Under the pieces are notes generated by a model that ran no database searches, had not been told where the DNA came from, and saw only the letters and a program-made list of their open reading frames with translations. The position numbers were made by a program, and so were the translations under genes. DNA of 64,000 nt from a candidate division FCPU426 bacterium (GTDB lineage Bacteria; Oederibacteriota; Muellerivitia; Muellerivitales; Muellerivitaceae). The DNA is taken from NCBI GenBank assembly GCA_003136635.1, contig PLFD01000013.1:54196-118195 (forward strand). The letters run 5' to 3'. Positions 2,607 through 26,509 of the stretch are shown piece by piece. The first letter of the stretch is position 1; each line of letters begins with the position of its first letter.

Positions 2607-4673
2607 TTGGGTTTTCTTTTTTTTATTTCTTGTCTCAAATTTTTCACTAACTTATTTCGAATTGCCTGTTCAATCCAAGATCATCGTTATTTTTTCGGTA
2701 TCTTCATTCCCTTTCTCGCTGCCGTAGCATCGACGCATTCACATTCCTTTGTTCCGCCAGTAAATTCCGCCGAATGGCTCCCATCTTTCAATTTTTTAGT
2801 CGTAACTTTGTTATTTGTCCTAGCCATTGTCATACGCTTTTGCCAGTTGACTTCCATGTCCACTTGGCCAATATCAGATGAAGCCATTTGGGGATTTTTT
2901 GGCATGTATCTCAGCCAAAAATGGAATTGGGATTATTTCTATGCTTTTACCCAATTACCACCTTTTTCCTTCTGGAGCCTTGGATTATTTTTTAAATGCT
3001 TCGGTGTTTCTTTAATGTCACTCTGGGCCTTTCCAGCCATCTTGTCGGCATTAACACTGCCTTTGGCTTATTGGTCCGCGAAGTCCTTTTTTTCCAAAAG
3101 CATTTCGATCGTTTTTTCATGTTTTTGGGCCTTCAGTTTCTGGCCGATTTATTTGGATCGCTTATGCGTAGGACACGGATTACTTATTCTATGGCAATTA
3201 CTAACTTTTGTTATTTTAGGTCGTTTTTTAAATCGCCTAATAGTGCGTCCCTCAATAGGCCTGGCGTTGCTTTTAGGCATTTGCACCTCTATAGGATTTT
3301 ACATTTTGTTCCATGCGGCCATCATGGTGGTTTACGTGATAATCATCGTTACTTACGCCATTCTTCACTGCCGTTCCTCAAACCGAAAACAGTTATACGC
3401 TTTTCTTTTTTCGTTTTTTTTAGGTTCTGCGCCTATTATCTCAGCTTGGCTGCGATTAAATCATCAAAGTGATTATCTTCATTATTTATGGGCCTTTAAA
3501 AACAATGTAAGCCCTCTTTCGCAACTCAAGGTGATATCACTGTATATTTCGGGACTTTTTTGGGGTGCAGATACATACAATTATTCTTATCGGGCTTTTG
3601 GGGGCGGTTTTTTTAATCCTTGGCTTGGTTCCTTGTTTTTAATTGGACTAATTCAATCTCTCATAAACTGGAAAAAAGAAATTAATCTTTGTCTGATCTG
3701 CGGTTTAGTGCTTTTTCTAATGCCAGCATTTCTAACTGGAGAAGTTGAAATGTTTCGCATGGTTCTCGCTCTGCCTTTCATCCTTATTTTCTGCGCCCTG
3801 GGACTTCAAAATCTTCTAGAATCGGCTTCTCCTCAAATGAGTCTGATTTCTTTTTTAATAATTTTAATCATCGTAGCATTTTCTGATTTTTATCGTCTGG
3901 AGATAACCTACCGGGATTTTTGGAAAGCTAATCCAAGCGTTTCTTTACGTTACACAAAATCTTTACAACGATGGAAAGCCTATGAAATTCTAAATCAACA
4001 AGCAAAAAAATTTGGTCCTGGCATTATTTTAACCGAATTCGACCCTACGCCTTATGATCAAACTTTGACCATCGCAACTTATCCATTCAATACGGCTCGA
4101 AATCCTCGGTTGGAATGCTCCAAATCAACATGGGCGGGAGTAATCACCAATGTTAATTACGTCCCTTATCTTTATCACCAAATACCATCGTCCCAATGGT
4201 TCCCTCTATCGATTGGACTAGATACTTCTATGGACAATTTGGTTCTGGGAATCATCCCTGTCAAATCCAGTACTTCCAAAAAAATATACAATTGGCTCCA
4301 AATGGAAAAAAATCTCTGGCCAATAACTTATGCTTTGTTTCAAATGCCCTATGGTCAATTAAACCCCAATATTTCTAAAATGTTGATTCAATGCCGATCG
4401 TCGATCAATGGCGATCCTTTTCTTGAATCTTTGCTGGATGAAAAGCTGTTTATTTACGACATGTCCAATCACGACGCATTACAGGCTTTGAAAGACATGC
4501 AACGAGCTCTAACCTTAGGTTTTCCTGCGGCTCATCTTTACAATAATCTGGGTGTGCTTTGGTTCACATTGGGCAATTACGCCAATGCACGTGAATCTTT
4601 TAAAGCCGCTCTTCATGCCCCCTTAAATCATACCCAAGCCGCTTTAAACTTAAGTCGCACACCTGCTCTTTAA
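2607..4673 (+). CDS. GT39/ArnT-PMT-like membrane glycosyltransferase with TPR-like C-terminus, paralog B (5' end frameshifted relative to the ancestral ATG at 2569)
   Basis: It is co-linear with the 124..2256 product. An upstream ATG at 2569 opens a 53-codon frame (MLSSDKTSLLNHPWVFFFLFLVSNFSLTYFELPVQSKIIVIF...) that is homologous to paralog A's N-terminus. That frame falls out of frame with the body at the T6 run 2690-2695. The ORF-track start at 2607 is a TTG in the body frame. Confidence 0.55.
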   Translation: MGFLFFISCLKFFTNLFRIACSIQDHRYFFGIFIPFLAAVASTHSHSFVPPVNSAEWLPSFNFLVVTLLFVLAIVIRFCQLTSMSTWPISDEAIWGFFGMYLSQKWNWDYFYAFTQLPPFSFWSLGLFFKCFGVSLMSLWAFPAILSALTLPLAYWSAKSFFSKSISIVFSCFWAFSFWPIYLDRLCVGHGLLILWQLLTFVILGRFLNRLIVRPSIGLALLLGICTSIGFYILFHAAIMVVYVIIIVTYAILHCRSSNRKQLYAFLFSFFLGSAPIISAWLRLNHQSDYLHYLWAFKNNVSPLSQLKVISLYISGLFWGADTYNYSYRAFGGGFFNPWLGSLFLIGLIQSLINWKKEINLCLICGLVLFLMPAFLTGEVEMFRMVLALPFILIFCALGLQNLLESASPQMSLISFLIILIIVAFSDFYRLEITYRDFWKANPSVSLRYTKSLQRWKAYEILNQQAKKFGPGIILTEFDPTPYDQTLTIATYPFNTARNPRLECSKSTWAGVITNVNYVPYLYHQIPSSQWFPLSIGLDTSMDNLVLGIIPVKSSTSKKIYNWLQMEKNLWPITYALFQMPYGQLNPNISKMLIQCRSSINGDPFLESLLDEKLFIYDMSNHDALQALKDMQRALTLGFPAAHLYNNLGVLWFTLGNYANARESFKAALHAPLNHTQAALNLSRTPAL

Positions 4674-6056: not shown

Positions 6057-9000
6057 CTATATCACTTGATCTTTGCGCAAGAAGTAAAGTCGGGCTTCTT
6101 TTACTTTCAAACCCGTAAAAGTTTCGAGAAGTTCGCTGTAATAACCAATCTGCTTTCGATAGGATTCCAGACCCCGTTGAGGATCATGGTCCGTTTTATA
6201 ATCCACCACTACCCAGGCACCATCCTCCAAGAAAGCCAAATCGATCACCGCATTCAAAAAAGTACCTTCAGGGTTCTTTCCTGTCAGGGATAATTCCCTG
6301 AAAACTTGCGTCGATTTTTTTGCTCTCATCAAAAGACTACTCGCCAAAGCTTTAGCGGCTAGCTCAGCCGCTTCTAGGGTTTTACCGACTGAAAGCCCCA
6401 AACCGGGCCCCCAAAGCTTGGCCGCCTTAGCCAAAGTTTCGTTATCCCAATTCCAACCCTTTTCCAGCAATTGATGGGTCAAAACCCCTAAGGCCTTGCC
6501 TTGCTGGTCGCCCGAAGCTGGCGGGTTTTCTCCCTCCAAAAAGTACCCTTCCCGTTCAGATTTGTCGTCGTCGGTGTGGGCTAAAGAGGTCACCGATTGA
6601 AGCCGAGTTTTTCCCCTTCGTCTTTCGATCAAAGACTTTTTCATTTTTTCCAATTCTTTTAAATAAACCTTTTGGTCCTCCACAACTTGGCTGTTCCTTT
6701 CTTTTTCAACCAGGTCTACCGCCAGCGCCGAAACTGCCGAGCGGTCTTGAATGGCTGTGACGTTTTGGATTTTTAATGCCTTCAGATCAAACGATCCCCT
6801 AATAGGTTTGAGGAACCCACCACCCTTTTCTTGGGTAAAAAGTGGAATAACCAAACTTTCCTTCGCCCTGGTACATCCCACATAAAGCAGCCGAAGGATT
6901 TCAGCCTTTTCCTGCGCCTCTTCCTCTTCCTGGGCTTTCTCAAATCCCGCCGTACAAAGCTTTAGTTCCTTATCACCCGCTTTAAACTGAGCATTGCCTT
7001 GATGGCGGTTCACGATAAAGTCAGACTTTCGGGGTTTTTCAGGCGCCGCACCCGAAAGGATGACCACTGGAAATTCCAAGCCTTTCGCTTTATGCAATGT
7101 CATAAGAGTCACCTGATTGCCCGTTTCCTCCGGGCCGGGCGCTTCGCCCTCCATGGCGGCTTCTTCCCTTTGGCGGACCAGCCATTTCACAAAAGCCCGG
7201 TAGGTGAAATTTTGCGATTCCTCCAGGTCGCGGCACTGATTGACGACCTTCATCAGATTGGCCACCCGCTGTTCACCGTGCGGCTGACAGGACACTACCG
7301 CTAGCAAGTTGGTCTTTTCGTACAAATAAAGCAGGGTCTCGGCCGGACTCAGTTGACGGGTTTCCAGATACCATTGGCGTAAATAACGGAAAGCTTCGCC
7401 CATTTTCCCTTTGGCCCCACGTAAAAATTCAAAAACCCCTCCGGCTTCCCGGTAAAGAAACAGTTCCTCATCGGTAAAGCCGAACAAAGAGCTTCGTAAT
7501 AAACCCGCTAGGCTTGCCTCATCAGCAGGAGATTCCAGACAGGTTAAGAGCGTTTCCAGCGCCACAATTTCGGGGCGGTTGTAGAACTTCTTTCCTCCTA
7601 CGATCTGAAACTGGATATGGCGGCGTCTTAAAGCGCTCTCATAAACGGATTCGGTGTTTGATAGTTCGCGGAACAGGATGGCGATATCTCCCGCCTGCAG
7701 GGGCCGTAGAATCGGTCTGTCCTTGGGAGACTTGGGATCAGTGATCAGCGGTTTTTCACGCAGAAGTTGCTCGATAAAATCGCCCACCGTTTCGGCTTCC
7801 AACTCGCGAAAAGCCGCGGTGCTTTGGTCTTCTTCGGGTATCTCGGGCATTTCTAGACCGATGAGCGGGGATAACCGCCCCTGTTGCATATCTAACAGGC
7901 GATGAGCGCTTTGGGGATTATAAGGAAAAGGTCCGTCTTGGAATAGTTGATCGAATCCCCGGTTAACCCAATCCACAATGGGCGACAAAGTGCGGAAGTT
8001 TTCAGTAAGTTTTTCCACTTGGCCCCCGCAGGCCGCCAGACGGACCTTGGCTTCGCCATAAATTTCAACGTCAGCCCGGCGAAAACGGTAAATGCTTTGC
8101 TGGGGATCGCCCACTAAAAATAACTTCCCGGGTTCCAGTTCAACCTTTTGCCATGACTTGGCTGGCTCACCTGCCGCGAGCCCACCAGGCGAGCGGCGAG
8201 CTTTGGTTGTGCCAAGGGCTTTACCAACCCTTGGCATACTTTTTTCAGATAAAAAGAAAACTATTTCTACCTGCAAAGGATCGGTATCCTGGAATTCATC
8301 GACAAACAAATGATCGTAGCGTTTTTTGAGTTCTTCCCGTACTTCCAGCCGGTCTTTCACCAGGTCCCGGGTCTTGGACAAGAGGTCGTCGAAATCGAGA
8401 AAGCCCTGTCGGGTCTTCATTTGGGCGTATTCGGCCAAGTAATCCCAAAGCCATAAAGCCGCTTTTTGAACCGCCGCATCTTTTGCTTGGGCCCCAAAAG
8501 TTTCCTGAGTTTCCCGCAAGGTTTCGATATGGGCTTTCACGTCTGCTAGGGCTTCTTTGCCCCAGTTGCCCTGACTGCCCACATTGCCGACTTTGGGCAC
8601 ATTGAGCCCTGCCAGTACGTAGAGAAGATTATCACCCGCAAGAACCTCAACTTCCCGCCAAATTGGGCCAAATTTCCCCAGTTTTTTCACCAGGCTGTCG
8701 TCAGGCGCGACGACTTTGGCTTTTTCTTGAATGAAAGCCCATGTCCGTTTCAAATCCAACAAAGTACTTTCGGGGTCGGGTAAATCAGATACCACCGGAG
8801 GCTCAAGAACAGACCGATTGCTCAAGAGATGGTTTTTCAGTTTTTCCAGATGCTCAAAGGTGCCGCCCAGACGGAAGAATGGCATGAGGCTTTCCACCGG
8901 GCGGGCCAGTGATTTTTTCAACCAGTTTTCCCAAGCTTCAGCTTCCAGGGCGTCGCTTTGTACCTGGTCGAGCACCGCAAATTGGGGATCAACCCCTACT

Positions 9001-9374
9001 TCCACCGGGTATTCCCGTAAAAGTGACGAGCAAAAAGAATGGATGGTCGAAACCGAGGCCTGTTCCAAATCTTTGAGCGCCCGGCGAAGTCGTTTTTCCC
9101 GTTCCTTTTGCGCTGCAGGTGAAAGTTTCAGCAAACTTTCAGAATCAAATTCTTTTTCCAGCCGAAGCCTTAGCCGTTCCACTAATTCCCCGGCGGCCTT
9201 ATCTGTAAAGGTAATGGCGGCGATACGGGCAAGCGATACTCCTTTTTCCAAAAGGAGTGCCACTAGACGGTCGATCAGCAAGGTGGTCTTACCCGTGCCG
9301 GCCCCAGCGTCTACCGCGAAGGAAATGTCGAGATCGGAAATAATCTTTTGACGGGCTGATTGGTCGGAGATCAT
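6057..9374 (-). CDS. addA: UvrD/PcrA-family helicase with C-terminal PD-(D/E)XK nuclease domain (AddA/RexA-like)
   Basis: It has a Walker A (GAGTGKTT) and UvrD-like helicase motifs. The C-terminal nuclease motif reads ...VVDYKTD... It is adjacent and co-directional to the AddB-like gene. Confidence 0.8.
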   Translation of the reverse strand: MISDQSARQKIISDLDISFAVDAGAGTGKTTLLIDRLVALLLEKGVSLARIAAITFTDKAAGELVERLRLRLEKEFDSESLLKLSPAAQKEREKRLRRALKDLEQASVSTIHSFCSSLLREYPVEVGVDPQFAVLDQVQSDALEAEAWENWLKKSLARPVESLMPFFRLGGTFEHLEKLKNHLLSNRSVLEPPVVSDLPDPESTLLDLKRTWAFIQEKAKVVAPDDSLVKKLGKFGPIWREVEVLAGDNLLYVLAGLNVPKVGNVGSQGNWGKEALADVKAHIETLRETQETFGAQAKDAAVQKAALWLWDYLAEYAQMKTRQGFLDFDDLLSKTRDLVKDRLEVREELKKRYDHLFVDEFQDTDPLQVEIVFFLSEKSMPRVGKALGTTKARRSPGGLAAGEPAKSWQKVELEPGKLFLVGDPQQSIYRFRRADVEIYGEAKVRLAACGGQVEKLTENFRTLSPIVDWVNRGFDQLFQDGPFPYNPQSAHRLLDMQQGRLSPLIGLEMPEIPEEDQSTAAFRELEAETVGDFIEQLLREKPLITDPKSPKDRPILRPLQAGDIAILFRELSNTESVYESALRRRHIQFQIVGGKKFYNRPEIVALETLLTCLESPADEASLAGLLRSSLFGFTDEELFLYREAGGVFEFLRGAKGKMGEAFRYLRQWYLETRQLSPAETLLYLYEKTNLLAVVSCQPHGEQRVANLMKVVNQCRDLEESQNFTYRAFVKWLVRQREEAAMEGEAPGPEETGNQVTLMTLHKAKGLEFPVVILSGAAPEKPRKSDFIVNRHQGNAQFKAGDKELKLCTAGFEKAQEEEEAQEKAEILRLLYVGCTRAKESLVIPLFTQEKGGGFLKPIRGSFDLKALKIQNVTAIQDRSAVSALAVDLVEKERNSQVVEDQKVYLKELEKMKKSLIERRRGKTRLQSVTSLAHTDDDKSEREGYFLEGENPPASGDQQGKALGVLTHQLLEKGWNWDNETLAKAAKLWGPGLGLSVGKTLEAAELAAKALASSLLMRAKKSTQVFRELSLTGKNPEGTFLNAVIDLAFLEDGAWVVVDYKTDHDPQRGLESYRKQIGYYSELLETFTGLKVKEARLYFLRKDQVI

Positions 9375-12300
9375 GGCAGGTCCTCCAACTGGTAATAGTT
9401 TTTTACTTTTTGATCTTCTTTTTTTCGTTTACCCCGGTCTTCCATGCCGGTGCCGCAAAGTTTGCGGTAATCGCAATGGTCGCAGGCGGTGCCCACCGAA
9501 GGAAAATGCCCCTGGACTACACCCTCCGCCACCGTTGTGAGCACTTGATCCAGAATGGGTTTCACTTCACCGGCGTCAGACGGATCAAAAGCCACTTTTT
9601 TATAGTCGCCCCGGCGGGTCATAAAATCGTACAAGGCCTGCTTGGAGATTTTTTCGGGATAAAGGTGGCGCAAAGCCCAAAGGTAAAAGGGCAATTGCAG
9701 TTTGGTACCGCTCTTCACGCTGTTCTTCTTGGTCCCAGCATCACTGCCGGTCTTATAGTCCACCACCCGAAGGGCTTGTCCATCGAGGGAAAGGTCTACC
9801 CGGTCCATGCGGCCTTGGAGCTTTAATTTTTGGCCATCCGCCAGTTCAAAAACGACTTCCTTTCCCTTTTCACCGAAAGCCACTTCGAAAGCAAAGGGGG
9901 TCCAATCCGGATCGGCCAGCACATCTTTCAGCACTGCCTGCAGATCTGAATCCATTTGTTCTTTTTCCCAATGCCATAACCCCGGCGCGCCGGGTATACC
10001 GGTCTTTTCGAACTGGCGGAAAGCTTTTTGAGTTTCTTCTTCCAGTACTTGAAGGCCTTGGGCAACATCCCGCTCAGCCACCCATTGCTCCTCCACTCCC
10101 CGGCGGAGGGTTTTCTCCAAAATATCGTGTATCAAGTTTCCCCGGTCAGAAGCTTGAATCTGGAGGATTTTCTCGGGATCGGGATAGACCATCAGGTGCA
10201 GAACGTAGCGGTAAAAATACCGAAGGGGGCAGGCCGCGAAAGTTTCCAACCGGGAGGCCGAAATAGAACTACCGGTCAATTCATGGTGCTGGGTCAAGGC
10301 TCTCAGAGCCGAAGCCCCGGTCAGAATGCCGTCATAAGCGGTAAAAAAGGGGCTGGCCTGTCGGTTCTTCAAAAGCTCTTTGCCTTCGAAATAGAAAGGC
10401 ATATCCCGGGTAACTGCGAGGGCGGGCACTGGATTGCCCTGGCGGGCCAAGTTGACGGAGGTGAGCAGGGTTTCCACCGGATTGCCGCAAGAGGCCATGT
10501 CGGGTTTAACCCAGTCGTTAACCGTTACGACCTGCACTAGGTTAACCGCGTCACCCAAACGGCTGACCCGGCGGCCCAAAATGGCTTCAGCGGATTCAAA
10601 CAGATAGATAGACGGTGTGCGAGGTGACCCCGTGGAAGGATTCAGGTGCGGCGCGGTCAGAATGAGAGACTTTTGAGCGCCCCGGACAGCCAGAAGAAAC
10701 AACAACCGCTCCTCCAAAGCACCCGCTTGTTTGGGGGCGATCTCTTCATCACCACGGCCCGTAATCAAGAGGCGTTCTTCGTCGAGTAGAAGCGGGTCTT
10801 GGCGCACCAGGCGCGGCACGAACTTTTCGACCAGGCCCGGCAATACAGCTACCTCGAAAGACACTCCCCGGGCCTGCATCAAATCAACCACCTGCGCCCC
10901 GCCCTTTTCCAGTTGTCGAGAGGGGCTTTGCTTTTGTTCGAGCATTGCCGCTAATAATTCTTTGAGGTCTTCCGAGGCAACGGTCAACTTAAAGGAAGCG
11001 CTCAAAAGTGACAGCGATTCGAGCACCGCGGTTGTTTCCCGCCGGGTATCAGAAATATTAAGAAATTTTTCAAGAAACCCTTTGAGTAAAACCAGCTGTC
11101 CGCCCCAGCTTTTTTCTTTTTGAAACCGGGCCCGGGCATTAAAAAGGGCGCCCAAAGCTTTTTCGAAAAAACGAGAGGCCTGCAGAATCTCTCCCGCGGG
11201 AGAATTTTCATCCTCTTCGGCGTTTTGCCTTTGTTTTTGCTCACGCCAGGCCAAAAGCCTGGAAATCCACTCTTTCTCTCCCTCCACAACCCGGGCTTCG
11301 CGGCTGATCACATCCCAAGACGAGGGATTCCAATTTTCGGGTTGAAGGTCAAACCCTTCTGGATTGAGGCAGGGACAGGAAAGCAGATTGATGGTGGTAT
11401 CCCGGGAAAAATCGCCGGTGAATCCGTCAAGAAGCAAGAGCAGGGTTTTGGCTTCGGTTGATTCGATCAAAGGAGCCGGCAGCGTCTTGGAAAGAGGAAC
11501 ACCCTGGGACCCGAAAGCGTGAGGCATCAGTTTGCGGTAAGAAGCGGTCTCCCGCAGAACCACCGCGCAGTCCGAAAGAAAAACATCTTTTTGGTTTGCC
11601 TCTTGGAGCAGTACCCGGGCAATCTCCTGGGCTTCCCGGGGCTCGCCGGGACAAAGAATGATTTGGCAGTCTGAAGAGACGTCTGCCGGAGGCGAAACCA
11701 AGGGAGCTGCCTCATCTTGAAAAAGACGATCCTGCAGCCTCTCCCGAGGACTTTCACCCCGCGCTTTCCAACGGTCTTGCTTTTTCACTTGCCCGAAACT
11801 TTTTGCCCAATCCACAAAAGGTTTCGCGTATTCAAAAGCCGGACTGTCCTCATAAGGGATAAACCACCCGCTCTCACCCGCGGCGCTCAAGTGGCGCAGG
11901 ACTTTCTTCTGCACGGCCGAGGCATCATAGAATCCATAGACCCAGACGACCCCCTCGCTTCGCGGAGGTTTCGCAAGCACTTTAAAATAGGTATCCTCCC
12001 GGTCAAGCCAGCGGCCTTTCTTTTTCCAGTCTTCATAGGCCTTAAAAAGCCCAGCAAATTCCTTGAGCTTGAGCGCCAACCGCGTTTCTTTTGCTTTCTC
12101 CAGACGGGCAGCGTGGCCGGCCAGACTCTCCGGCGTATAGAGTCCTTCTTTTAATTCGCTCAGCGTAGCCCTGAGAGCGTGATAAAACCCAGGCGTCTGG
12201 CTGACCGGACCAAAGGAACGGCTTTTAGAAAGTAATGATTTAGTCGCTTCTTTAAGTACCAGAGGCACCAGTACATCGGGCAGGTTTTGAAAATCTTCCA

Positions 12301-12538
12301 CGATGAATGTTTCTTCTGCCACGGCTTCCATGTAATGACGAAGTGTGTGAATTTCCAGGTTAAAAAGATTCTGACCCTTTTCGGTTAAAGTTTTTCGCAA
12401 ATGACCGACTAATAGAAAGTTGGGAACGAGAACGGTAACCTTCTCAAAGGGATTTTTCTTACGATAAGCCTGGAAGGCTTTAAGTAGTTCTTCTTCTAAA
12501 AAAGGCTGATAGGGACCCAAATAAAGGGAAATACTCAC
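9371..12538 (-). CDS. addB: AddB/RexB-like helicase-nuclease subunit (degenerate helicase N-terminus, C-terminal PD-(D/E)XK nuclease with Cys cluster)
   Basis: The C-terminus carries ...RVVDYKTG... and GTACDHCDYRKLCG, an Fe-S staple-like Cys pattern. Its start overlaps the stop of the addA-like gene by 4 bp. Confidence 0.75.
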   Translation of the reverse strand: MSISLYLGPYQPFLEEELLKAFQAYRKKNPFEKVTVLVPNFLLVGHLRKTLTEKGQNLFNLEIHTLRHYMEAVAEETFIVEDFQNLPDVLVPLVLKEATKSLLSKSRSFGPVSQTPGFYHALRATLSELKEGLYTPESLAGHAARLEKAKETRLALKLKEFAGLFKAYEDWKKKGRWLDREDTYFKVLAKPPRSEGVVWVYGFYDASAVQKKVLRHLSAAGESGWFIPYEDSPAFEYAKPFVDWAKSFGQVKKQDRWKARGESPRERLQDRLFQDEAAPLVSPPADVSSDCQIILCPGEPREAQEIARVLLQEANQKDVFLSDCAVVLRETASYRKLMPHAFGSQGVPLSKTLPAPLIESTEAKTLLLLLDGFTGDFSRDTTINLLSCPCLNPEGFDLQPENWNPSSWDVISREARVVEGEKEWISRLLAWREQKQRQNAEEDENSPAGEILQASRFFEKALGALFNARARFQKEKSWGGQLVLLKGFLEKFLNISDTRRETTAVLESLSLLSASFKLTVASEDLKELLAAMLEQKQSPSRQLEKGGAQVVDLMQARGVSFEVAVLPGLVEKFVPRLVRQDPLLLDEERLLITGRGDEEIAPKQAGALEERLLFLLAVRGAQKSLILTAPHLNPSTGSPRTPSIYLFESAEAILGRRVSRLGDAVNLVQVVTVNDWVKPDMASCGNPVETLLTSVNLARQGNPVPALAVTRDMPFYFEGKELLKNRQASPFFTAYDGILTGASALRALTQHHELTGSSISASRLETFAACPLRYFYRYVLHLMVYPDPEKILQIQASDRGNLIHDILEKTLRRGVEEQWVAERDVAQGLQVLEEETQKAFRQFEKTGIPGAPGLWHWEKEQMDSDLQAVLKDVLADPDWTPFAFEVAFGEKGKEVVFELADGQKLKLQGRMDRVDLSLDGQALRVVDYKTGSDAGTKKNSVKSGTKLQLPFYLWALRHLYPEKISKQALYDFMTRRGDYKKVAFDPSDAGEVKPILDQVLTTVAEGVVQGHFPSVGTACDHCDYRKLCGTGMEDRGKRKKEDQKVKNYYQLEDLP

Positions 12539-13957: not shown

Positions 13958-14241
13958 GAATGGCTCCTTAAAAGATACCTTTAGTTTTATCTCGATTGCG
14001 CCTAAAACACAATGGCCTCATAAGCCTTATCTAAATAATAGTACTTTTTGCCAGCGGTTTAAAAGCCCCTAAAACAAGCTTTTTTTGAACCTATTTGAAA
14101 AAGAGCATAATTTCTCTTTTTCAATAAAATTAACTTTGGGAGCAAATCCCACAGTGCTAATCTAGAGAAAGAAAGAAGTAGTAGATACAGTTGACGTTGG
14201 CCCGCTTGAAATACAGTTCAAATCCTTCACGAGGAGACCGT

Positions 14242-15021
14242 ATGAAATCTTTTCAAGCAATACCGTTACCCGAATCCCTTAAACCCCTTATTCCACAACT
14301 GGCGCATGATTTTCGAGCCGCTATCAGCTATGTGTCTTTTTATCCTGTGGATAGTTCTTTTGTCGCCCAATCGGTCCAAAAACTTTATGAGGATTTTCAA
14401 AAAATTCTTCAATGCGGACAGCCTTTAATCTTTCGCGCTGAAAATCAAAAACTTTATATCAACGATCAATTTCTTTCGTCTTTTGACGATATCATTCACT
14501 TATTTCAAACTCAAAATATCCTCGGCGTTGAAATAGAAAAAGATATTTCAGAAGCGGAATTAACCGATTGGCTTCAAATTATCGCTTTTTCGTCAGAGGA
14601 AGATATTAAGAACTATGAAAAAAATCAAACCGCTCACATTCGTCTCATACTCAAATTGAACACCGAACCCATGTCTAAAATTCTGAAAGAGCCGATAGCT
14701 TTCGCGTTAAACGCATTCGAATCTTTCGACGCCTTGACACAGCGTTCTCACTCTAATCGAATCGATGGCTTTCATCAAAATCATCAGGCGCTTTTGGGTT
14801 TCGTGGAAGAATCCTGGCAATTTATCCAAACGCAGCAGAAAAAACTGGGGCGTTCCGCCGAAATGACTTATTGGTCGGAAACTTTCGATCAATTTTTCAA
14901 ACATCTGCTGGACAGAATGGAAAAACCCTCTCCGGACCTTAAAGATTTGAATGTTTGTTTTAAAAATCCGTCAGAGCTGTTTTTAAACGAAATAGAAAAC
15001 CTATTTGGTTTAGAACAGTGA
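14242..15021 (+). CDS. Hypothetical protein (lower-GC insertion)
   Basis: The ATG at 14242 is preceded by a GAGGAG RBS; the ORF track starts 51 nt earlier without one. I recognise no domain. The gene is visibly AT-richer than its neighbours and its 3' end overlaps the convergent nuclease gene. Confidence 0.5.
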   Translation: MKSFQAIPLPESLKPLIPQLAHDFRAAISYVSFYPVDSSFVAQSVQKLYEDFQKILQCGQPLIFRAENQKLYINDQFLSSFDDIIHLFQTQNILGVEIEKDISEAELTDWLQIIAFSSEEDIKNYEKNQTAHIRLILKLNTEPMSKILKEPIAFALNAFESFDALTQRSHSNRIDGFHQNHQALLGFVEESWQFIQTQQKKLGRSAEMTYWSETFDQFFKHLLDRMEKPSPDLKDLNVCFKNPSELFLNEIENLFGLEQ

Positions 15022-16038
15022 CAGTTGGTCCGTTGAAACAGCCTTAATTCTTTTTCTGCCGGAAGGAATCGCCGTGCCAAAAACCGCCGCGGCGGTACCG
15101 GCTACACTGGGAGCTACCGATTCGACAGGATCCGCTAAATTTTCAGCCGCGGTGGTCAAAGACGGCACAGGGGTCGCATCCACAACCGAGGCAGTTTCTT
15201 CTTCCTCGAAATTTTTATCTTTGCTCTTCACCCAGGCTTTGCCGTCAGAACAAATGGTTAAATACTCGCACCATTTGCAAAGAATGCTGGTTTTGGTGGA
15301 ATAGCTTTTCGCTTTTTCAATGGTTTCGATTTTGGCAATGTATTTTTGCTTGAGCCAATCAATTTCTTTAGAGTTTCTCTCGCCCATGACCTGATCTTTT
15401 TCAAAAGCCACAAAATGCCAAAGTAATTTAAACTTTTCTTTAGGTCCAAATCGGGGATTTTGGTAAAGCCCCGCTTGATAAAGAGCCAATTGATCCTCGC
15501 CTCTGGCATCTTCTTCCGACATTTTACGGGCGCTGGTTTTATAGTCATGAATCCACAGAGTGCCGTACTCATCACGGCCAAGACGGTCGATAAAGCCCTG
15601 CATCTTAAACTCACCCTTGGGATCTAAATTAAAAGCGACCTTTAACTCAATGCCTTCGGTCTTATCCTGGTCAAAGGGGTGATATTGGTGAAAGTAATTT
15701 TCTACAAACAATTGGCCTTTATGGAAATAGTCCTCTACTGTCTGCCCCGACTTAGCGATGCGAAGAGTGTTGGTAAAGTTACGCTCTTTTTGTTTTTGAA
15801 GTGATTGCTGCCAATGCTTTTCCCAAAGCTGGTTAAAATAATTAACCAGCTCATTCACCGTGGGAACTTTGTGGTTTATTTGCTCATAAAGATATTCCAT
15901 GGTCTCGTGAAAGCGGGAGCCCAGGAACAATTCAACGCCTTCGGCTACGGGCGAAGGCCTGCGTTCGATATAGCGGAATTGAAATTGAGCGGGACAGGTG
16001 AAGTAAGTGTTAATGCGGGAGTAAGAATAAATCGTCAT
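15010..16038 (-). CDS. Cas4/RecB-like PD-(D/E)XK nuclease with 4-Cys Fe-S staple and a low-complexity A/T/V/S-rich C-terminal tail
   Basis: N-terminus YSYSRINTYFTCPAQFQFRYI (the PDDEXK_1 start, first Cys). Core motif GFIDRL...IHDYKT. C-terminal Cys pattern CKWCEYLTIC (C-X2-C-X5-C). This is followed by an approximately 70-aa low-complexity tail. Confidence 0.75.
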   Translation of the reverse strand: MTIYSYSRINTYFTCPAQFQFRYIERRPSPVAEGVELFLGSRFHETMEYLYEQINHKVPTVNELVNYFNQLWEKHWQQSLQKQKERNFTNTLRIAKSGQTVEDYFHKGQLFVENYFHQYHPFDQDKTEGIELKVAFNLDPKGEFKMQGFIDRLGRDEYGTLWIHDYKTSARKMSEEDARGEDQLALYQAGLYQNPRFGPKEKFKLLWHFVAFEKDQVMGERNSKEIDWLKQKYIAKIETIEKAKSYSTKTSILCKWCEYLTICSDGKAWVKSKDKNFEEEETASVVDATPVPSLTTAAENLADPVESVAPSVAGTAAAVFGTAIPSGRKRIKAVSTDQLSLF

Positions 16039-16148
16039 GGGCCGATTATAACGACGACGCCCTGAGGGACAACCCTTTTTTCCCAGTTATTTAGGTGAAC
16101 CGCGACTAAAATAAACTCCTCTTTTTCAAATCTTCCAGGAGATCTTTC

Positions 16149-17885
16149 ATGACTCTTTTGACCGCCCAATCCGTTCCTCACAATTATCCCAGACACTATC
16201 TTCCAGCCCAAACTAATCTGGGCGATTGGTCGGTCGTCGAACCGTTTTTAAAAGAACTTCAAACCCGCTCGCTTCATTCCCCCATTGATCTGGAAAAATG
16301 GCTAAAAGATCTGAACGAACTGGAACAAGCTTTGGGTGAAGAAGGTTCCATTCGGTATGTGCGAATGACCTGTAAGACAGACGACCCTCAGATTGAAAAA
16401 GATTATGTCAATTTTCTGGAGAAAATTTCCGAACCCAGCAAATCTCTTTTCTTCGGATTACTCAAAAAATATTGGGAATCGCCTTACCGTTCTTTTCTCA
16501 ATGAAAAGGACTACTTTCTTTTTAACCGCTCGGTCGAAAACCAATTGGCTCTTTATCGCGAGGAAAATATTCCGCTGGAGACTGAGATTGAAAAACTGTC
16601 CCAGCAATATCAAAAACTAAGCGGTTCTCTCACTGTGCAATACGAAGGAAAGGAACAGACGCTTCAACAAATGGGCCGTTACCTGGAATCCACTGACCGC
16701 CAAAAGCGGGAAGAAGCCTGGCGTCTGACTTCGGAACGCCGTTTAAAAGAAAAAGATAAATTTGAGGATCTGTTTGACGAAATGTTAAAAATTCGCGTCC
16801 AAATCGCCAAGAACGCCGGCTTTGACAATTACCGTGACTATATTTTCCGCCGCAAAGAACGGTTTGATTACAGCGCCAAGGATTGCGAAGCTTTTCACGA
16901 AAGCGCCGAAAAAACCATTAAACCCCTCGTGGATAATCTCCAAAAAAAACGTGCGGCCCAAATGGGCCTGAGCACCCTGAAACCTTGGGATATGTCCGTA
17001 GACCCGTTGGGTCTGGCTCCACTCAAACCCTTTGAAAACACGGACCAACTTATCGCCGGATGTGAAACCCTTTTGGGACAGGTGGATCCCGAATTCGGCA
17101 AAAACTTCAAATCCATGAAAGAGCTGCGTTTATTGGATCTAGATTCGCGTAAAGGAAAAGCGCCGGGCGGCTACCAGGTAGATTTGGAAGAAGCCCGCAT
17201 CCCTTTTATTTTCGCCAACTCGGTGGGAGTCGATCACGACGTGCGAACCCTTCTGCATGAAGGCGGCCACGCCATGCATAGCTTCGCCTGGAAAAATATC
17301 TCTTTTTACCCTTACCGCCACGCCCCCATGGAATTTTGCGAGGTGGCTTCGATGAGCATGGAACTGATGGCCGATCCTTACCTTTCGGTTTTTTATCCCA
17401 ACCCCAAAGACGCGGCGCGTTCTATCATCCGCCATTTGGAAGATGTCATTGTACTTTTACCCTGGATCGCCACCATTGACGCTTTTCAGCACTGGATTTA
17501 TACCCATTCCAACCACACCCGTCAGGAACGGTCCGACTATTGGGTGAGTTTAAGAAAACGCCTGGGGGGAATTGATGATTGGACCGGGTTTGAGGAAGTC
17601 CGTTCCAGCCTTTGGCACCGCCAGTTGCATATTTTTGAATATCCCTTTTATTACATTGAATACGGTATCGCCCAATTAGGCGCATTACAGATATGGAAAA
17701 ATTTTCGTCAAAACAAAGCGGAAGGAGTTCGTCTTTATAAGCAAGGTCTGGCGGTCGGAGGTAGTCAAACCTTGCCGGAAATTTTTAAATCCGCCGGAAT
17801 CCACTTTGATTTCAGCTTAAAAATGATCGAACCTTTAATGGCCGAAGTGGCTAAAGAATTGGAACAACAGGAAAAAATTGGTTAA
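16149..17885 (+). CDS. pepF: Oligoendopeptidase F (M3B family)
   Basis: Zinc motif LLHEGGHAMHS, a length of about 580 aa, and a PepF-like architecture. Confidence 0.85.
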   Translation: MTLLTAQSVPHNYPRHYLPAQTNLGDWSVVEPFLKELQTRSLHSPIDLEKWLKDLNELEQALGEEGSIRYVRMTCKTDDPQIEKDYVNFLEKISEPSKSLFFGLLKKYWESPYRSFLNEKDYFLFNRSVENQLALYREENIPLETEIEKLSQQYQKLSGSLTVQYEGKEQTLQQMGRYLESTDRQKREEAWRLTSERRLKEKDKFEDLFDEMLKIRVQIAKNAGFDNYRDYIFRRKERFDYSAKDCEAFHESAEKTIKPLVDNLQKKRAAQMGLSTLKPWDMSVDPLGLAPLKPFENTDQLIAGCETLLGQVDPEFGKNFKSMKELRLLDLDSRKGKAPGGYQVDLEEARIPFIFANSVGVDHDVRTLLHEGGHAMHSFAWKNISFYPYRHAPMEFCEVASMSMELMADPYLSVFYPNPKDAARSIIRHLEDVIVLLPWIATIDAFQHWIYTHSNHTRQERSDYWVSLRKRLGGIDDWTGFEEVRSSLWHRQLHIFEYPFYYIEYGIAQLGALQIWKNFRQNKAEGVRLYKQGLAVGGSQTLPEIFKSAGIHFDFSLKMIEPLMAEVAKELEQQEKIG

Positions 17886-18083: not shown

Positions 18084-18902
18084 ATGACTACAGTAACGCT
18101 CGATGATTCCAAATACGCCAAGGGAACAGGTATTTTTTCGATCTATAAAAATGTCGAATTCCCGACAGACGTTAAAAAACGCTGTATGGCTTTGCTTGAA
18201 TTGGGCACCGAGACCCTTTTAGCGAATAACTTCATCATTTTGGATTTTATTCCCTATCCCGGATTAGGTGAAGTGGGCGAGGATGAGGTTTTAAGATATT
18301 CCTGGATCCTTTCCGAGTCACACCGCATTCTCATTTACAATCCCAAAACCAAAACCCTGATTGACGAACTTTACACCTGCAGTCCCGAAAAAGACGGACG
18401 CATCATGTTTGAAAAAACCAATAAACGTCTGGGCAATCCGTTAAAAAATCACATGCTCAACGAGATCGTCAGCAAAGAAATCGCTTTGGAAGAGGAACCG
18501 GATAAATTGTTCCATTCGGTGCAAACCGCTTCGGATAAATTCAAACTGGCGAACGAAAAGAACTATTGTGTGTCCGCGGTATTCTTTGATATTCCGGACC
18601 GCAAGTTGGATGAAGATAGCCTCGAAGACATGCTCACCATCGCGCTAAATAAAGATGACCAAAAACCGGTTATTGAATCCGCCTGCCGCTATGACCCTCA
18701 GGGTTATACCTATATCCATCAGTCCTCCAAACATTTCGCGGGCCTTCACAGCTATCCGGGCACCTTGAAGTCGGCTCATTTAAGTTTGATCGGATCAGGC
18801 AACGCCATTCTTTCCGTCTTGGAAGATGTGGAAACCGTAGTTTATAAATCGAAGAAAAAAGAACCCACGATCAGCATTAAGATTGTTGCCGAAAATTTTT
18901 AA
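18084..18902 (+). CDS. Hypothetical protein
   Basis: A 272-aa ORF with no motif I recognise. It lies downstream of the AT-rich tract and is co-directional with the zinc-ribbon ORF. Confidence 0.5.
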   Translation: MTTVTLDDSKYAKGTGIFSIYKNVEFPTDVKKRCMALLELGTETLLANNFIILDFIPYPGLGEVGEDEVLRYSWILSESHRILIYNPKTKTLIDELYTCSPEKDGRIMFEKTNKRLGNPLKNHMLNEIVSKEIALEEEPDKLFHSVQTASDKFKLANEKNYCVSAVFFDIPDRKLDEDSLEDMLTIALNKDDQKPVIESACRYDPQGYTYIHQSSKHFAGLHSYPGTLKSAHLSLIGSGNAILSVLEDVETVVYKSKKKEPTISIKIVAENF

Positions 18903-18951: not shown

Positions 18952-19146
18952 ATGGCGTCCTGTTTAGGTTGTGGCAAAGACATGGAAGAAGCTTCTCGAA
19001 AAATAATGAAAGGTGAGGGTTCAAGCGGAAGCCCCAATTACAAAGTGGTTTATCAATGTCAAAACCCTTCTTGCTCAAAAAAAGGATTAAAAATTCCGTT
19101 TCTTGACGACGGAATGATGATGATTCCCCTGCCTGACGGCCAATAA
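18952..19146 (+). CDS. Small zinc-ribbon protein (CxxC...Cx4C)
   Basis: A 64-aa protein with MASCLGCGK...CQNPSC Cys pairs. It starts 49 bp after the upstream ORF. Confidence 0.45.
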   Translation: MASCLGCGKDMEEASRKIMKGEGSSGSPNYKVVYQCQNPSCSKKGLKIPFLDDGMMMIPLPDGQ

Positions 19147-25504: not shown

Positions 25505-26509
25505 CTATTCTTCGATTTCGGTTAAAAATGATTTGACCGTATTTTCATTAATTTCGCCACCTTTTGAAAAAATGGTTTTCAATTCAGAAAAGTCAAAATC
25601 ATACGGATTTCGAATGTGGGAGGCTGTTAATTGAAGTAGAGCAGATGTGGTTAAAAGAACGGTCGTTACGTTTGTTTGCTCTCGAATATCTTGAACTGCT
25701 TTTTTGCAGTCCGAATTGAAAGACCGCGCCACAAAAACAAAAAACAAAGTTTTAATTCCCTCTTTCTCAAGGGATTCTCGATAGTCACCAATATATCGTT
25801 CCGCTTTCCGTCTATCGTTGGCATCAATCGAATAACCATCTTTATGCGATTTAGCGTCGCCAATAATGGCGTAATGGTCTTTAGGTCTCTTAGCAATAAA
25901 ATCAGGATTTTCACCTTGGCCTTGTCCTAAAAGGTTGGTTTTAAATCCTAGTAATTGAAAAGCTATACCCACTTGGGTTTCAAAATCGTTTGAGTCGTCT
26001 GTATCTTCAAGGTTTTTAAGAACTGGCGGCACAAACAAATGAAAATCTTCGAGGTGAGTGGTAATAACATTTGTCATTTCTTTTTCATCGGATTTCGGAA
26101 GATAAACTAAAACATCCGCATATTCAGGTCTATCTTTGGCGAAGTCTTTAAAACGAAGAGGAATTTCAGAAAATTTACAGTTAAATTTATATTGAAAGGT
26201 TCTACCGATCGGCTGAAATTTGTAATAACTCCATTCAGCCTTAGATGGCGGATGTTTTAATTTATAAAGTATGTCTGAATATGACTTCCACATTTGTTCT
26301 ATTGGAATTAAAGGAATATCTCGAACTGTGGAACGAGGCTCGAACCCAGATTCTGTCATTAAGTTACTAAAATTAAGAAATAATTTTATAAGGTAATGAT
26401 TAGTTACATTTGTTTCTGAAATGAATTCTTCAAAAAAAGGTGGTCGACCTTTAATGCCCGCTAATCGCTTCATTTCTTGAATACAGTATTCTTTGGTAAT
26501 ATCGGCCAT
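25505..26509 (-). CDS. Two-domain protein: unknown N-terminal domain (~180 aa) plus C-terminal FokI-like (restriction-endonuclease-fold) cleavage domain
   Basis: The C-terminal half aligns to the FokI catalytic domain across the active site: PDFIAKRPKDHYAIIGDAKSHKDGYSIDANDRRKAERYI versus PDGAIYTVGSPIDYGVIVDTKAYSGGYNLPIGQADEMQRYV. The downstream helices also align (FFVFVARSFNSDCKKAV... versus FLFVSGHFKGNYKAQL...). The gene is much more AT-rich than its flanks. Confidence 0.7.
   Translation of the reverse strand: MADITKEYCIQEMKRLAGIKGRPPFFEEFISETNVTNHYLIKLFLNFSNLMTESGFEPRSTVRDIPLIPIEQMWKSYSDILYKLKHPPSKAEWSYYKFQPIGRTFQYKFNCKFSEIPLRFKDFAKDRPEYADVLVYLPKSDEKEMTNVITTHLEDFHLFVPPVLKNLEDTDDSNDFETQVGIAFQLLGFKTNLLGQGQGENPDFIAKRPKDHYAIIGDAKSHKDGYSIDANDRRKAERYIGDYRESLEKEGIKTLFFVFVARSFNSDCKKAVQDIREQTNVTTVLLTTSALLQLTASHIRNPYDFDFSELKTIFSKGGEINENTVKSFLTEIEE

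Follow-up and report, generated by a model that had tools for sequence, protein, structure and literature searches.

A stand-alone Fe-S RecB/Cas4-like nuclease with a predicted clamp-binding tail, and a shortened HEAT-repeat protein convergent with it, at a conserved locus of candidate division FCPU426

Contig PLFD01000013.1 of a candidate division FCPU426 bacterium (GenBank assembly GCA_003136635.1) contains two convergent genes, one for a stand-alone nuclease of 342 aa and one for a partner protein of 259 aa. The window analysed here is a 64,000-nucleotide stretch of this contig (positions 54,196 to 118,195), to which all coordinates given without a locus label refer; loci of relatives are cited by L numbers and individual homologous proteins by P numbers. 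An earlier note, made from the letters of the window, had described the two genes as a low-GC insertion of a Cas4-like nuclease and an unknown protein, possibly a mobile recombination or anti-phage module. Public collections already contain both genes, annotated "RecB family exonuclease" and "hypothetical protein", and the closest genomes are metagenome-assembled genomes of candidate division FCPU426 / Candidatus Firestonebacteria. The position between ispH/LysM and pepF was confirmed, with ispH (PF02401) and a LysM lipoprotein gene on one flank and a gene for a pepF-like oligoendopeptidase on the other. The nuclease is also, as had been stated, independent of AddAB, since a separate and complete AddA/AddB pair is encoded at 6057..12538, 2.5 kb from the nuclease gene, with an AddB of 1055 aa that carries both ADDB_N and PDDEXK_1.

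Both open reading frames (ORFs) and the overlap of their 3' ends could be verified. The partner ends in TTA GAA CAG TGA (L-E-Q-stop), antisense to the S-L-F-stop of the nuclease, which leaves no terminator space, and a promoter/terminator scan found no terminator-like hairpin between the two genes. This junction was established by direct reading of the sequence together with protein alignment; a global MAFFT alignment of the DNA against locus L001 misplaced the 3' end. The partner proved to be a real plus-strand gene, although its length was corrected from 260 to 259 aa: the ORF opens at TTG 14191, and the true start is ATG 14242, which follows a Shine-Dalgarno sequence, corresponds to the Met at which all homologues begin and is also used in public gene calls. 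The best promoter-like site of the region falls in the 110-nt divergent spacer that the nuclease and pepF have in common; it is a consensus match only, as the counts of promoter and terminator sites were not above shuffled expectation.

A profile search assigned the nuclease to PF12705 (PDDEXK_1) with E=3e-30 and 106.3 bits (cutoff 22), the match extending over residues 5-263 and over positions 3-246 of a profile of 247. Residues C15, C254, C257, C263, D151, D165-Y166-K167, Q183 and Y187 were invariant across 27 aligned homologues, and the DYK, QxxxY and CX2CX5C motifs were found in all 94 homologues of at least 300 aa from a set of 110 sequences. The invariance of the catalytic and Cys residues points to an intact RecB-type active site and a four-Cys staple, the four cysteines being predicted ligands of an Fe-S cluster. 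AlphaFold modelled residues 1-277 with a per-residue confidence (pLDDT) >90, and the nearest solved folds identified by Foldseek were the nuclease domains of AdnA/AdnB and AddAB, ACE1 (an Argonaute-associated Cas4-family protein), RecE, MGME1, Exo5 and Cas4, with E values from 2e-10 to 1e-3 and probabilities of ~1.0 for AdnAB, AddAB, RecE, Exo5 and Cas4. A comparison of the nuclease profile with the sequences of solved structures yielded only weak matches, to AdnAB and ACE1. Because of its active site, staple and fold matches, the protein is a genuine member of the Fe-S RecB/Cas4-like superfamily, and the Cas4/AddB-like four-Cys PD-(D/E)XK architecture that had been read from the letters was borne out.

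On the other hand, the nuclease is neither a Cas4 in the strict sense nor an AddB. It scored 19.3 bits against the Cas4 model TIGR00372 (cutoff 65), did not match PF01930 at E values up to 0.01, and matched the Cas4 models of PADLOC weakly (best E=4e-6, 25 bits). Against the AddB model TIGR02786 it reached 20 bits (cutoff 486) and corresponds to the nuclease domain only. In PHROGs it falls with phage "exonuclease" families (phrog_69 at 1e-24). Two homologues deserve separate mention. At L024 6001-6654, the nuclease copy appears frameshifted or truncated (217 aa, without CX2CX5C) and may represent a genuine pseudogene or result from misassembly. At L090 2119-9171, a distant 399-aa homologue (P0108) lies in a defence-island-like neighbourhood with a WYL regulator, PDDEXK_4, RNase_H_2 and an ScoMcrA_N protein, and this context implies that other branches of the nuclease family may be defence-associated, though the FCPU426 branch is not.

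Beyond the last Cys, the nuclease continues for 79 aa rich in A (16%), S (11%), V (11%) and T (9%), a peptide with its DQLSLF end being RKRIKAVSTDQLSLF. The earlier note had reported a low-complexity tail of ~70 aa that was not typical of the family; the tail is real, and its supposed oddity is not, as 95 of the 107 database homologues whose tail is 30 aa or longer end alike (93 fitting a strict pattern of the terminal motif and two a loose one). Among 29 FCPU426 loci, 26 encode a tail of 53-106 aa with a QLxLF-like motif at the C-terminus or at most one residue from it, and the motif is exactly DQL.LF in 23 of these 26. Of the other three, one lies at a contig end, one is frameshifted and one has four residues beyond the motif. 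Of the 77 homologues whose C-terminus is the motif itself, 100% have Q, L, L and F and 95% the preceding D, whereas position 3 is variable (S 38%, P 35%, K, R). The same 77 proteins have a patch of K/R at positions -18 to -14, with K or R at -15 in 98%, and both this patch and a V-S-x-D context are specific to the family. The linker itself is unalignable and steady in composition (A 19%, P 18%, S 12%), homologue tails ranging from 45 to 106 aa with a median of 79. No protein with the same C-terminal motif occurred among 1033 background ORFs of at least 150 aa from the window and the fetched loci. Judged from these alignments, the combination of linker, K/R patch and terminal motif is a clade signature rather than an atypical feature.

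The terminal peptide is predicted to bind the beta sliding clamp. It has been reported that the bacterial clamp-binding consensus is QL[S/D]LF, that QLSLF is the C-terminal motif of PolC, and that motif positions 1, 4 and 5 matter most (PMC12309361); conservation at positions 1, 2, 4 and 5 with a variable position 3 fits this known pattern. The features expected of a clamp client are present, namely a QxxLF-type pentapeptide (residues 338-342) in a disordered, terminal location that is conserved while its surroundings vary. Alternatively, DQLxLF could be a short linear motif for a non-clamp target, such as a degron or a dock for another repair protein, with the tail merely a spacer. QxxLF-like peptides range widely in clamp affinity and some bind weakly (PMC12309361), and the K/R patch and V-S-x-D context are peculiar to this family, both of which would suit such a target. 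We regard it as rather unlikely, since the peptide exactly matches the strongest consensus (the QLSLF/QLDLF class) at a disordered C-terminal end, as in PolC and other clients, its substitutions follow the known tolerance of clamp motifs, it recurs in a second clade, and clamp-tethered PD-(D/E)XK nucleases have precedents. For instance, E. coli RecB has recently been reported to bind the beta-clamp via a motif within the nuclease domain, an interaction that influences DNA degradation and survival (bioRxiv 10.1101/2025.08.20.671105), and EndoMS/NucS requires a C-terminal clamp motif in vivo (PMC6159521).

If the peptide does bind the clamp, the QLSLF end would dock into the hydrophobic cleft of the DnaN sliding clamp, and the long linker would let the nuclease reach DNA ends, flaps or gaps by clamps at replication forks or repair patches, where the tethered enzyme might trim single-stranded DNA or DNA ends. 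By analogy, such a logic would be a bacterial counterpart of that of PCNA- or clamp-tethered nucleases (FEN1, EndoMS/NucS, RecB). The clamp gene dnaN is not in the 64-kb window.

Table 1. Coordinates of features at the nuclease/partner locus (window positions, except for the last row)
Feature	Position	Strand	Remark
Fe-S RecB/Cas4-like PD-(D/E)XK nuclease gene, stand-alone, 342 aa	15010..16038	(-)	ORF; stop codon 15010-15012
Nuclease core, residues 1-263	15250..16038	(-)	Invariant columns in the alignment of 27 homologues
Cys15 of nuclease	15994-15996	(-)	Invariant
C254-x2-C257-x5-C263, predicted cluster-binding motif	15250..15279	(-)	With C15, predicted four-Cys Fe-S staple
Disordered Ala/Pro/Ser/Thr/Val-rich linker, residues 278-334	15037..15207	(-)	AlphaFold pLDDT <50
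Basic patch RKRIK, residues 328-332	15043..15057	(-)	Just upstream of the terminal motif
DQLSLF, residues 337-342, C-terminal end of nuclease	15013..15030	(-)	Predicted beta-sliding-clamp-binding motif
Partner gene, 259 aa	14242..15021	(+)	Convergent with nuclease; retained N-terminal module of a HEAT-repeat protein
Shine-Dalgarno sequence of partner, GGAGA	14233-14237	(+)	5 nt upstream of ATG; read from the sequence
12-nt antisense overlap of partner and nuclease 3' ends	15010-15021	both	Direct reading
Promoter-like site TTGTCC-16-TATAAT	16045..16072	(-)	10/12 consensus matches; best of the region; just upstream of nuclease start
pepF-like M3 oligoendopeptidase gene	16149..17885	(+)	PF01432; divergent from nuclease
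Variable cargo 3' of nuclease	L088 11246-14530; L089 11262-16603		FCPU426 genomes without adjacent HEAT gene

Most other lineages of the nuclease family carry, in place of the tail, a folded C-terminal domain of ~150 aa (for example L040 6742-7191, with equivalents in L030-L079). This domain has consistent but sub-threshold Pfam matches of the Mu Gam / Sipho_Gp157-like kind (DUF7376, DUF7307, PF22709) and no match in the PDB, and its Gam/Gp157-like identity is a lead only. A low-complexity tail with a QLxLF-like end was also identified in a second clade comprising Acidobacteriota, Polarisedimenticolia and Deltaproteobacteria, and in a rough neighbour-joining tree of nuclease cores, built without support values, the tail-plus-motif proteins formed two separate clades, each nested among lineages with the C-terminal domain. 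The clamp tether appears to have replaced the ~150-aa domain in this family. Whether FCPU426/Firestonebacteria and, independently, an Acidobacteriota-centred clade both possess a clamp-tethered Fe-S Cas4/AddB-like nuclease, in which the tether took the place of a Gam/Gp157-like and perhaps DNA-end-binding domain, is in our judgement an even bet.

The nuclease gene is a long-standing resident of its position. When the neighbours of the nuclease in the window were used as tblastn queries, pepF was found beside the nuclease in 26 of the 29 FCPU426 loci, and the order addA-addB-ispH-LysM-partner-nuclease-pepF is kept in L001, L012 and L029 and in the sister species (L080-L083). The furthest-reaching of these loci, L080, also retains the 272-aa, 64-aa and DoxX genes that follow pepF. 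The first two of these are, in the window, a 272-aa ORF and a 64-aa Cys-rich ORF on the plus strand (18084-18902 and 18952-19146), neither with a family match, and they are conserved after pepF not only in L080 but also in the same-species contigs L085 and L086. The nuclease is 89-90% identical to the copies of the sister species and 82% identical to that of L001, and its ratio of nonsynonymous to synonymous substitution rates (dN/dS) against the sister species, 0.03-0.06, is on a par with those of ispH, LysM and pepF, the values being approximate because dS (0.8-1.7) is near saturation. An assembly artefact was considered and rejected, since an identical nuclease protein occurs on 19 independently assembled contigs and the three of them that were examined all agree with the window in gene arrangement, 259-aa gene call and 12-nt overlap. 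The nuclease is vertically inherited in a conserved chromosomal position and is not an insertion.

These observations bear directly on the proposal that the pair was acquired horizontally as a low-GC mobile module for recombination or anti-phage defence. Several features might be quoted in its favour, such as the AT-richness of the partner, the resemblance of the nuclease to phage exonuclease families and, weakly, to Cas4 in PADLOC, and the defence-island-like setting of the distant 399-aa homologue. However, the position of both genes is conserved across the phylum, the GC content of the nuclease is ordinary, selection is strongly purifying and inheritance looks vertical. No tRNA was found in the window and there were no Rfam matches; flanking repeats around the pair were at chance level, and no integrase or other mobility gene was seen among the genes examined next to it. 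Neither composition, repeats, tRNA or mobility genes nor distribution marks the region as a genomic island. The nuclease shares at most 29% identity with its phage and plasmid relatives, in matches confined to the core, while the partner has no phage, PADLOC or PHROG match. No significant PADLOC defence-system match was obtained for the pair, a TRF scan of the 64-kb window revealed no CRISPR-like array, and there were no cas genes among the scanned window genes, a non-cas context that is likewise found in relatives. A mobile module is, therefore, very improbable. The earlier note had itself named a family with a conserved position as an argument against its suggestion, and the nuclease has just such a position.

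The claim that both genes are AT-richer than their flanks holds for one of them. Over the 42 window genes of at least 150 aa, mean GC was 0.479 (standard deviation 0.040) and mean GC at third codon positions (GC3) 0.534 (standard deviation 0.075). The partner, with GC 0.391 and GC3 0.375 (z ~-2.2), is among four such low-GC genes of the window, whereas the nuclease (GC 0.448, GC3 0.484, z=-0.8) is near pepF (0.461) and ispH (0.471); only the partner being AT-rich, the description as a low-GC two-gene unit is half true. All short orthologues of the partner are low in GC (0.38-0.42), whereas the equivalent N-terminal region of the long forms described below lies only ~1-4.5 points under the average of its locus, and the AT-richness therefore tracks truncation and relaxed constraint rather than foreign origin. 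Since the orthologues in sister species have the same low GC, the partner is not a recent import, and recent horizontal transfer was rejected on the grounds of this shared composition and of synteny. Elsewhere in the window, the gene with the lowest GC (25505-26509, minus strand; GC 0.354, GC3 0.278, z=-3.1) has a 334-aa product in which a FokI cleavage domain (E=4e-12) is accompanied by an HNH-associated repeat; this gene adjoins a nicotinate phosphoribosyltransferase gene and is a far better candidate for a horizontally acquired nuclease or restriction-type gene than the pair discussed here. Two adjacent plus-strand genes for proteins of ~700 aa (124-2256 and 2607-4673; GC 0.416 and 0.391), each with a weak C-terminal TPR match, may be paralogues.

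The origin of the partner became apparent from its long relatives. At L001, L012 and L009, the nuclease faces a convergent gene for a protein of 668-717 aa with PF13646 (HEAT_2) near the C-terminus, and a search with the long form retrieved 76 relatives of ~670-720 aa, many on contigs that also contain a nuclease homologue. The partner aligns to residues 1 to ~250 of these proteins. Homology runs through DRMEKPSPDLKDLNVCFKNPSELFLN of the partner, which corresponds to DRMEKSSPDFKNICAWFKNPTGDFLAEG of L001, and is followed by nine unrelated residues and a stop within the 3' end of the nuclease gene. By tblastn, the partner is 43-52% identical to the closest long forms (L001, L012, L029) and 24-33% to distant ones, aligned identity to long forms ranging overall from 24 to 57%; its profile matches them with E values of 1e-43 to 1e-12. 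There is no PF13646 match in the window partner, and scans of it against Pfam, NCBIfam, PADLOC and PHROGs gave nothing significant. Sister species have versions of 237-240 aa, ~16 codons shorter, with a 4-nt overlap with the nuclease gene. The occurrence of short forms in both the window and the sister species indicates that the HEAT solenoid (the C-terminal ~420 aa) was lost in a genus-level lineage, either by one deletion followed by a small second one or by two independent deletions. The loss set the shortened ORF flush to the nuclease stop, so that the partner now terminates inside the nuclease gene.

Whether this fragment is still of use was considered as well. A functionless pseudogene decaying after the deletion might be suspected from the loss of ~420 aa, from a rate of evolution about 3-5 times that of the neighbours with a drift towards AT, and from the last nine residues without homology and the stop inside the adjacent gene. 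We find this hardly credible. The dN/dS of the partner is approximately 0.09-0.18 across species at a dS of ~0.9-1.6, and a ratio so far below 1 indicates a functional, though fast-evolving, protein. Its ORF is intact with a good Shine-Dalgarno sequence, at least four divergent lineages of species rank have unbroken short forms, and the 259-aa call is present in every contig of this species examined. Moreover, an alignment of the short forms has over 100 invariant columns, and in the predicted structure, an alpha/beta subdomain plus a helical bundle, the N-terminal subdomain is folded with confidence. Remote matches of the partner profile (P0210 and P0212-P0215, E 1e-5 to 6e-4) weakly relate its N-terminal subdomain to a module inside large proteins of the GGDEF / AAA_16 STAND-ATPase / HEAT-repeat kind, a Ser/Thr kinase domain being present in one of them as well. 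These matches suggest a recurring "X-HEAT" signalling cassette.

A further question is whether the two genes form a functional pair, in which the HEAT protein would act as regulator, scaffold or inhibitor of the nuclease and the convergent 3' ends would couple expression by transcriptional interference. The HEAT long form was used as a query against the 29 FCPU426 loci and 50 loci outside the phylum. In ~10 of the 29, the HEAT gene abuts the 3' end of the nuclease in convergent orientation, with anything from a 4-nt overlap to a 426-nt gap; it lies 1.7 kb away in one locus and 5.7-6 kb away in three. This proximity, the near confinement or concentration of both families in one phylum, the overlapping or almost touching 3' ends of several lineages, which lack an intervening terminator, and continued selection on the N-terminal module after HEAT loss are what such a pair might show. 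Conversely, ~12 FCPU426 loci with at least 3.5 kb of downstream sequence have no HEAT match in the fetched flank (the few remaining loci are truncated or too short downstream to judge), and none of the 50 loci outside the phylum has a HEAT gene beside the nuclease homologue. The genes are never co-directional or co-transcribed, and 60% of the partner was lost while the nuclease stayed unaltered. Also, the weak remote similarities of the partner lead to signalling proteins (GGDEF-STAND-X-HEAT) and GAF-like folds rather than to enzymes acting on DNA. The two intervals examined in loci where the genes are separated contain unrelated cargo, in one case a TacA/GNAT toxin-antitoxin pair and two IS1595 transposases and in the other a methyltransferase and histidine kinases, and the space between the converging genes resembles a hot spot of insertion. 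We consequently consider a functional pair improbable and infer that the adjacency reflects ancestral synteny around an insertion-prone gap, with no functional tie between the genes. The partner is not the independent component of a two-gene module that had been supposed, being a lineage-specific truncation of a HEAT protein.

Taken together, our preferred reading, to which we would give a probability of roughly 0.6, is that of an ancestral, vertically inherited locus with a stand-alone Fe-S RecB/Cas4-like nuclease that is probably recruited to the clamp, and with a convergent partner that is the remnant of a HEAT protein. The partner would form a separate transcription unit for the N-terminal module of a phylum-specific HEAT protein of ~670-720 aa. 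Some points weigh against this reading. The nearest solved relatives of the nuclease are just 12-19% identical to it, the dN/dS comparisons were made near saturation, and the two-origin argument for the tail comes from a rough tree. In addition, the case for clamp binding is drawn from the identity, position, disorder and conservation of a C-terminal short linear motif, which could serve another binding partner, and the HEAT gene does abut the nuclease in about a third of the FCPU426 loci, both families being concentrated in a single phylum.

The novelty lies in reading the tail of a Cas4-like nuclease as a clamp tether, and the features of the tail predict a new class of beta-clamp client. 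If true, the enzyme would be the first of the Cas4 family with a demonstrated role as a beta-clamp client, and a bacterial analogue of PCNA-tethered flap and end nucleases. The roles of solo-Cas4-type nucleases outside CRISPR are an acknowledged open question (PMC5704561), for which a clamp tether offers a testable hypothesis, namely replication- or repair-coupled processing of ends or flaps; it would also add to the recent evidence that RecB-family nucleases work with the clamp. Furthermore, the apparent swap between a folded C-terminal domain and a clamp tether within one family provides a case of modular recruitment. The partner, of minor interest, illustrates domain loss with the N-terminal module kept under selection. 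Its AT-rich gene turned out to be a truncated resident rather than foreign DNA, and low GC combined with unknown function should not be taken to imply mobility without a check of synteny.

Several known systems can be compared with this locus. The N-terminal module of the FCPU426 HEAT-repeat proteins (668-720 aa) is homologous to the partner and syntenic with it, whereas the partner lacks the HEAT repeats, has a nine-residue non-homologous end and evolves faster. The solo-Cas4/PF12705 Fe-S nucleases (Cas4, AddB, AdnAB, Exo5, ACE1) resemble the nuclease in fold, in the D...D-x-K and QxxxY motifs and in the Cys ligands. Vertical inheritance and ordinary purifying selection have been reported for solo-Cas4 (PMC5704561), and the same was found here. 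Compared with Cas4, the core is larger (263 aa against ~160-200), the scores are far below the family thresholds, no cas gene was seen among the scanned window genes and no CRISPR-like array in the window, and a disordered linker with a predicted clamp-binding motif is added. In the Cas4-family literature searched, a clamp-binding motif was not mentioned, and the Cas4 phylogenomics paper refers to neither the clamp nor PCNA.

EndoMS/NucS of Actinobacteria and Archaea is a clamp-activated mismatch endonuclease whose fold match to the window nuclease was not significant (5gke, E=0.06); it lacks both an Fe-S cluster and a long low-complexity linker and is dimeric, with an N-terminal domain that binds mismatches, and nothing in the window nuclease points to mismatch specificity. 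Enzymes of the RecBCD/AddAB type have the RecB-family nuclease domain in common with it. Unlike RecB, however, the window nuclease has no helicase (AddAB being encoded separately), and the clamp motif of RecB is an internal, partly buried hexapeptide, whereas that predicted here is a canonical pentapeptide on a disordered tail. Exo5 and Dna2 are not known to have a C-terminal clamp peptide. Both of these enzymes possess the Fe-S RecB-like nuclease fold (PMC5704561). There is also a likeness in layout to FEN1-PCNA (PMC1636371), in which a nuclease core of different fold is likewise followed by a flexible C-terminal extension and a terminal clamp peptide.

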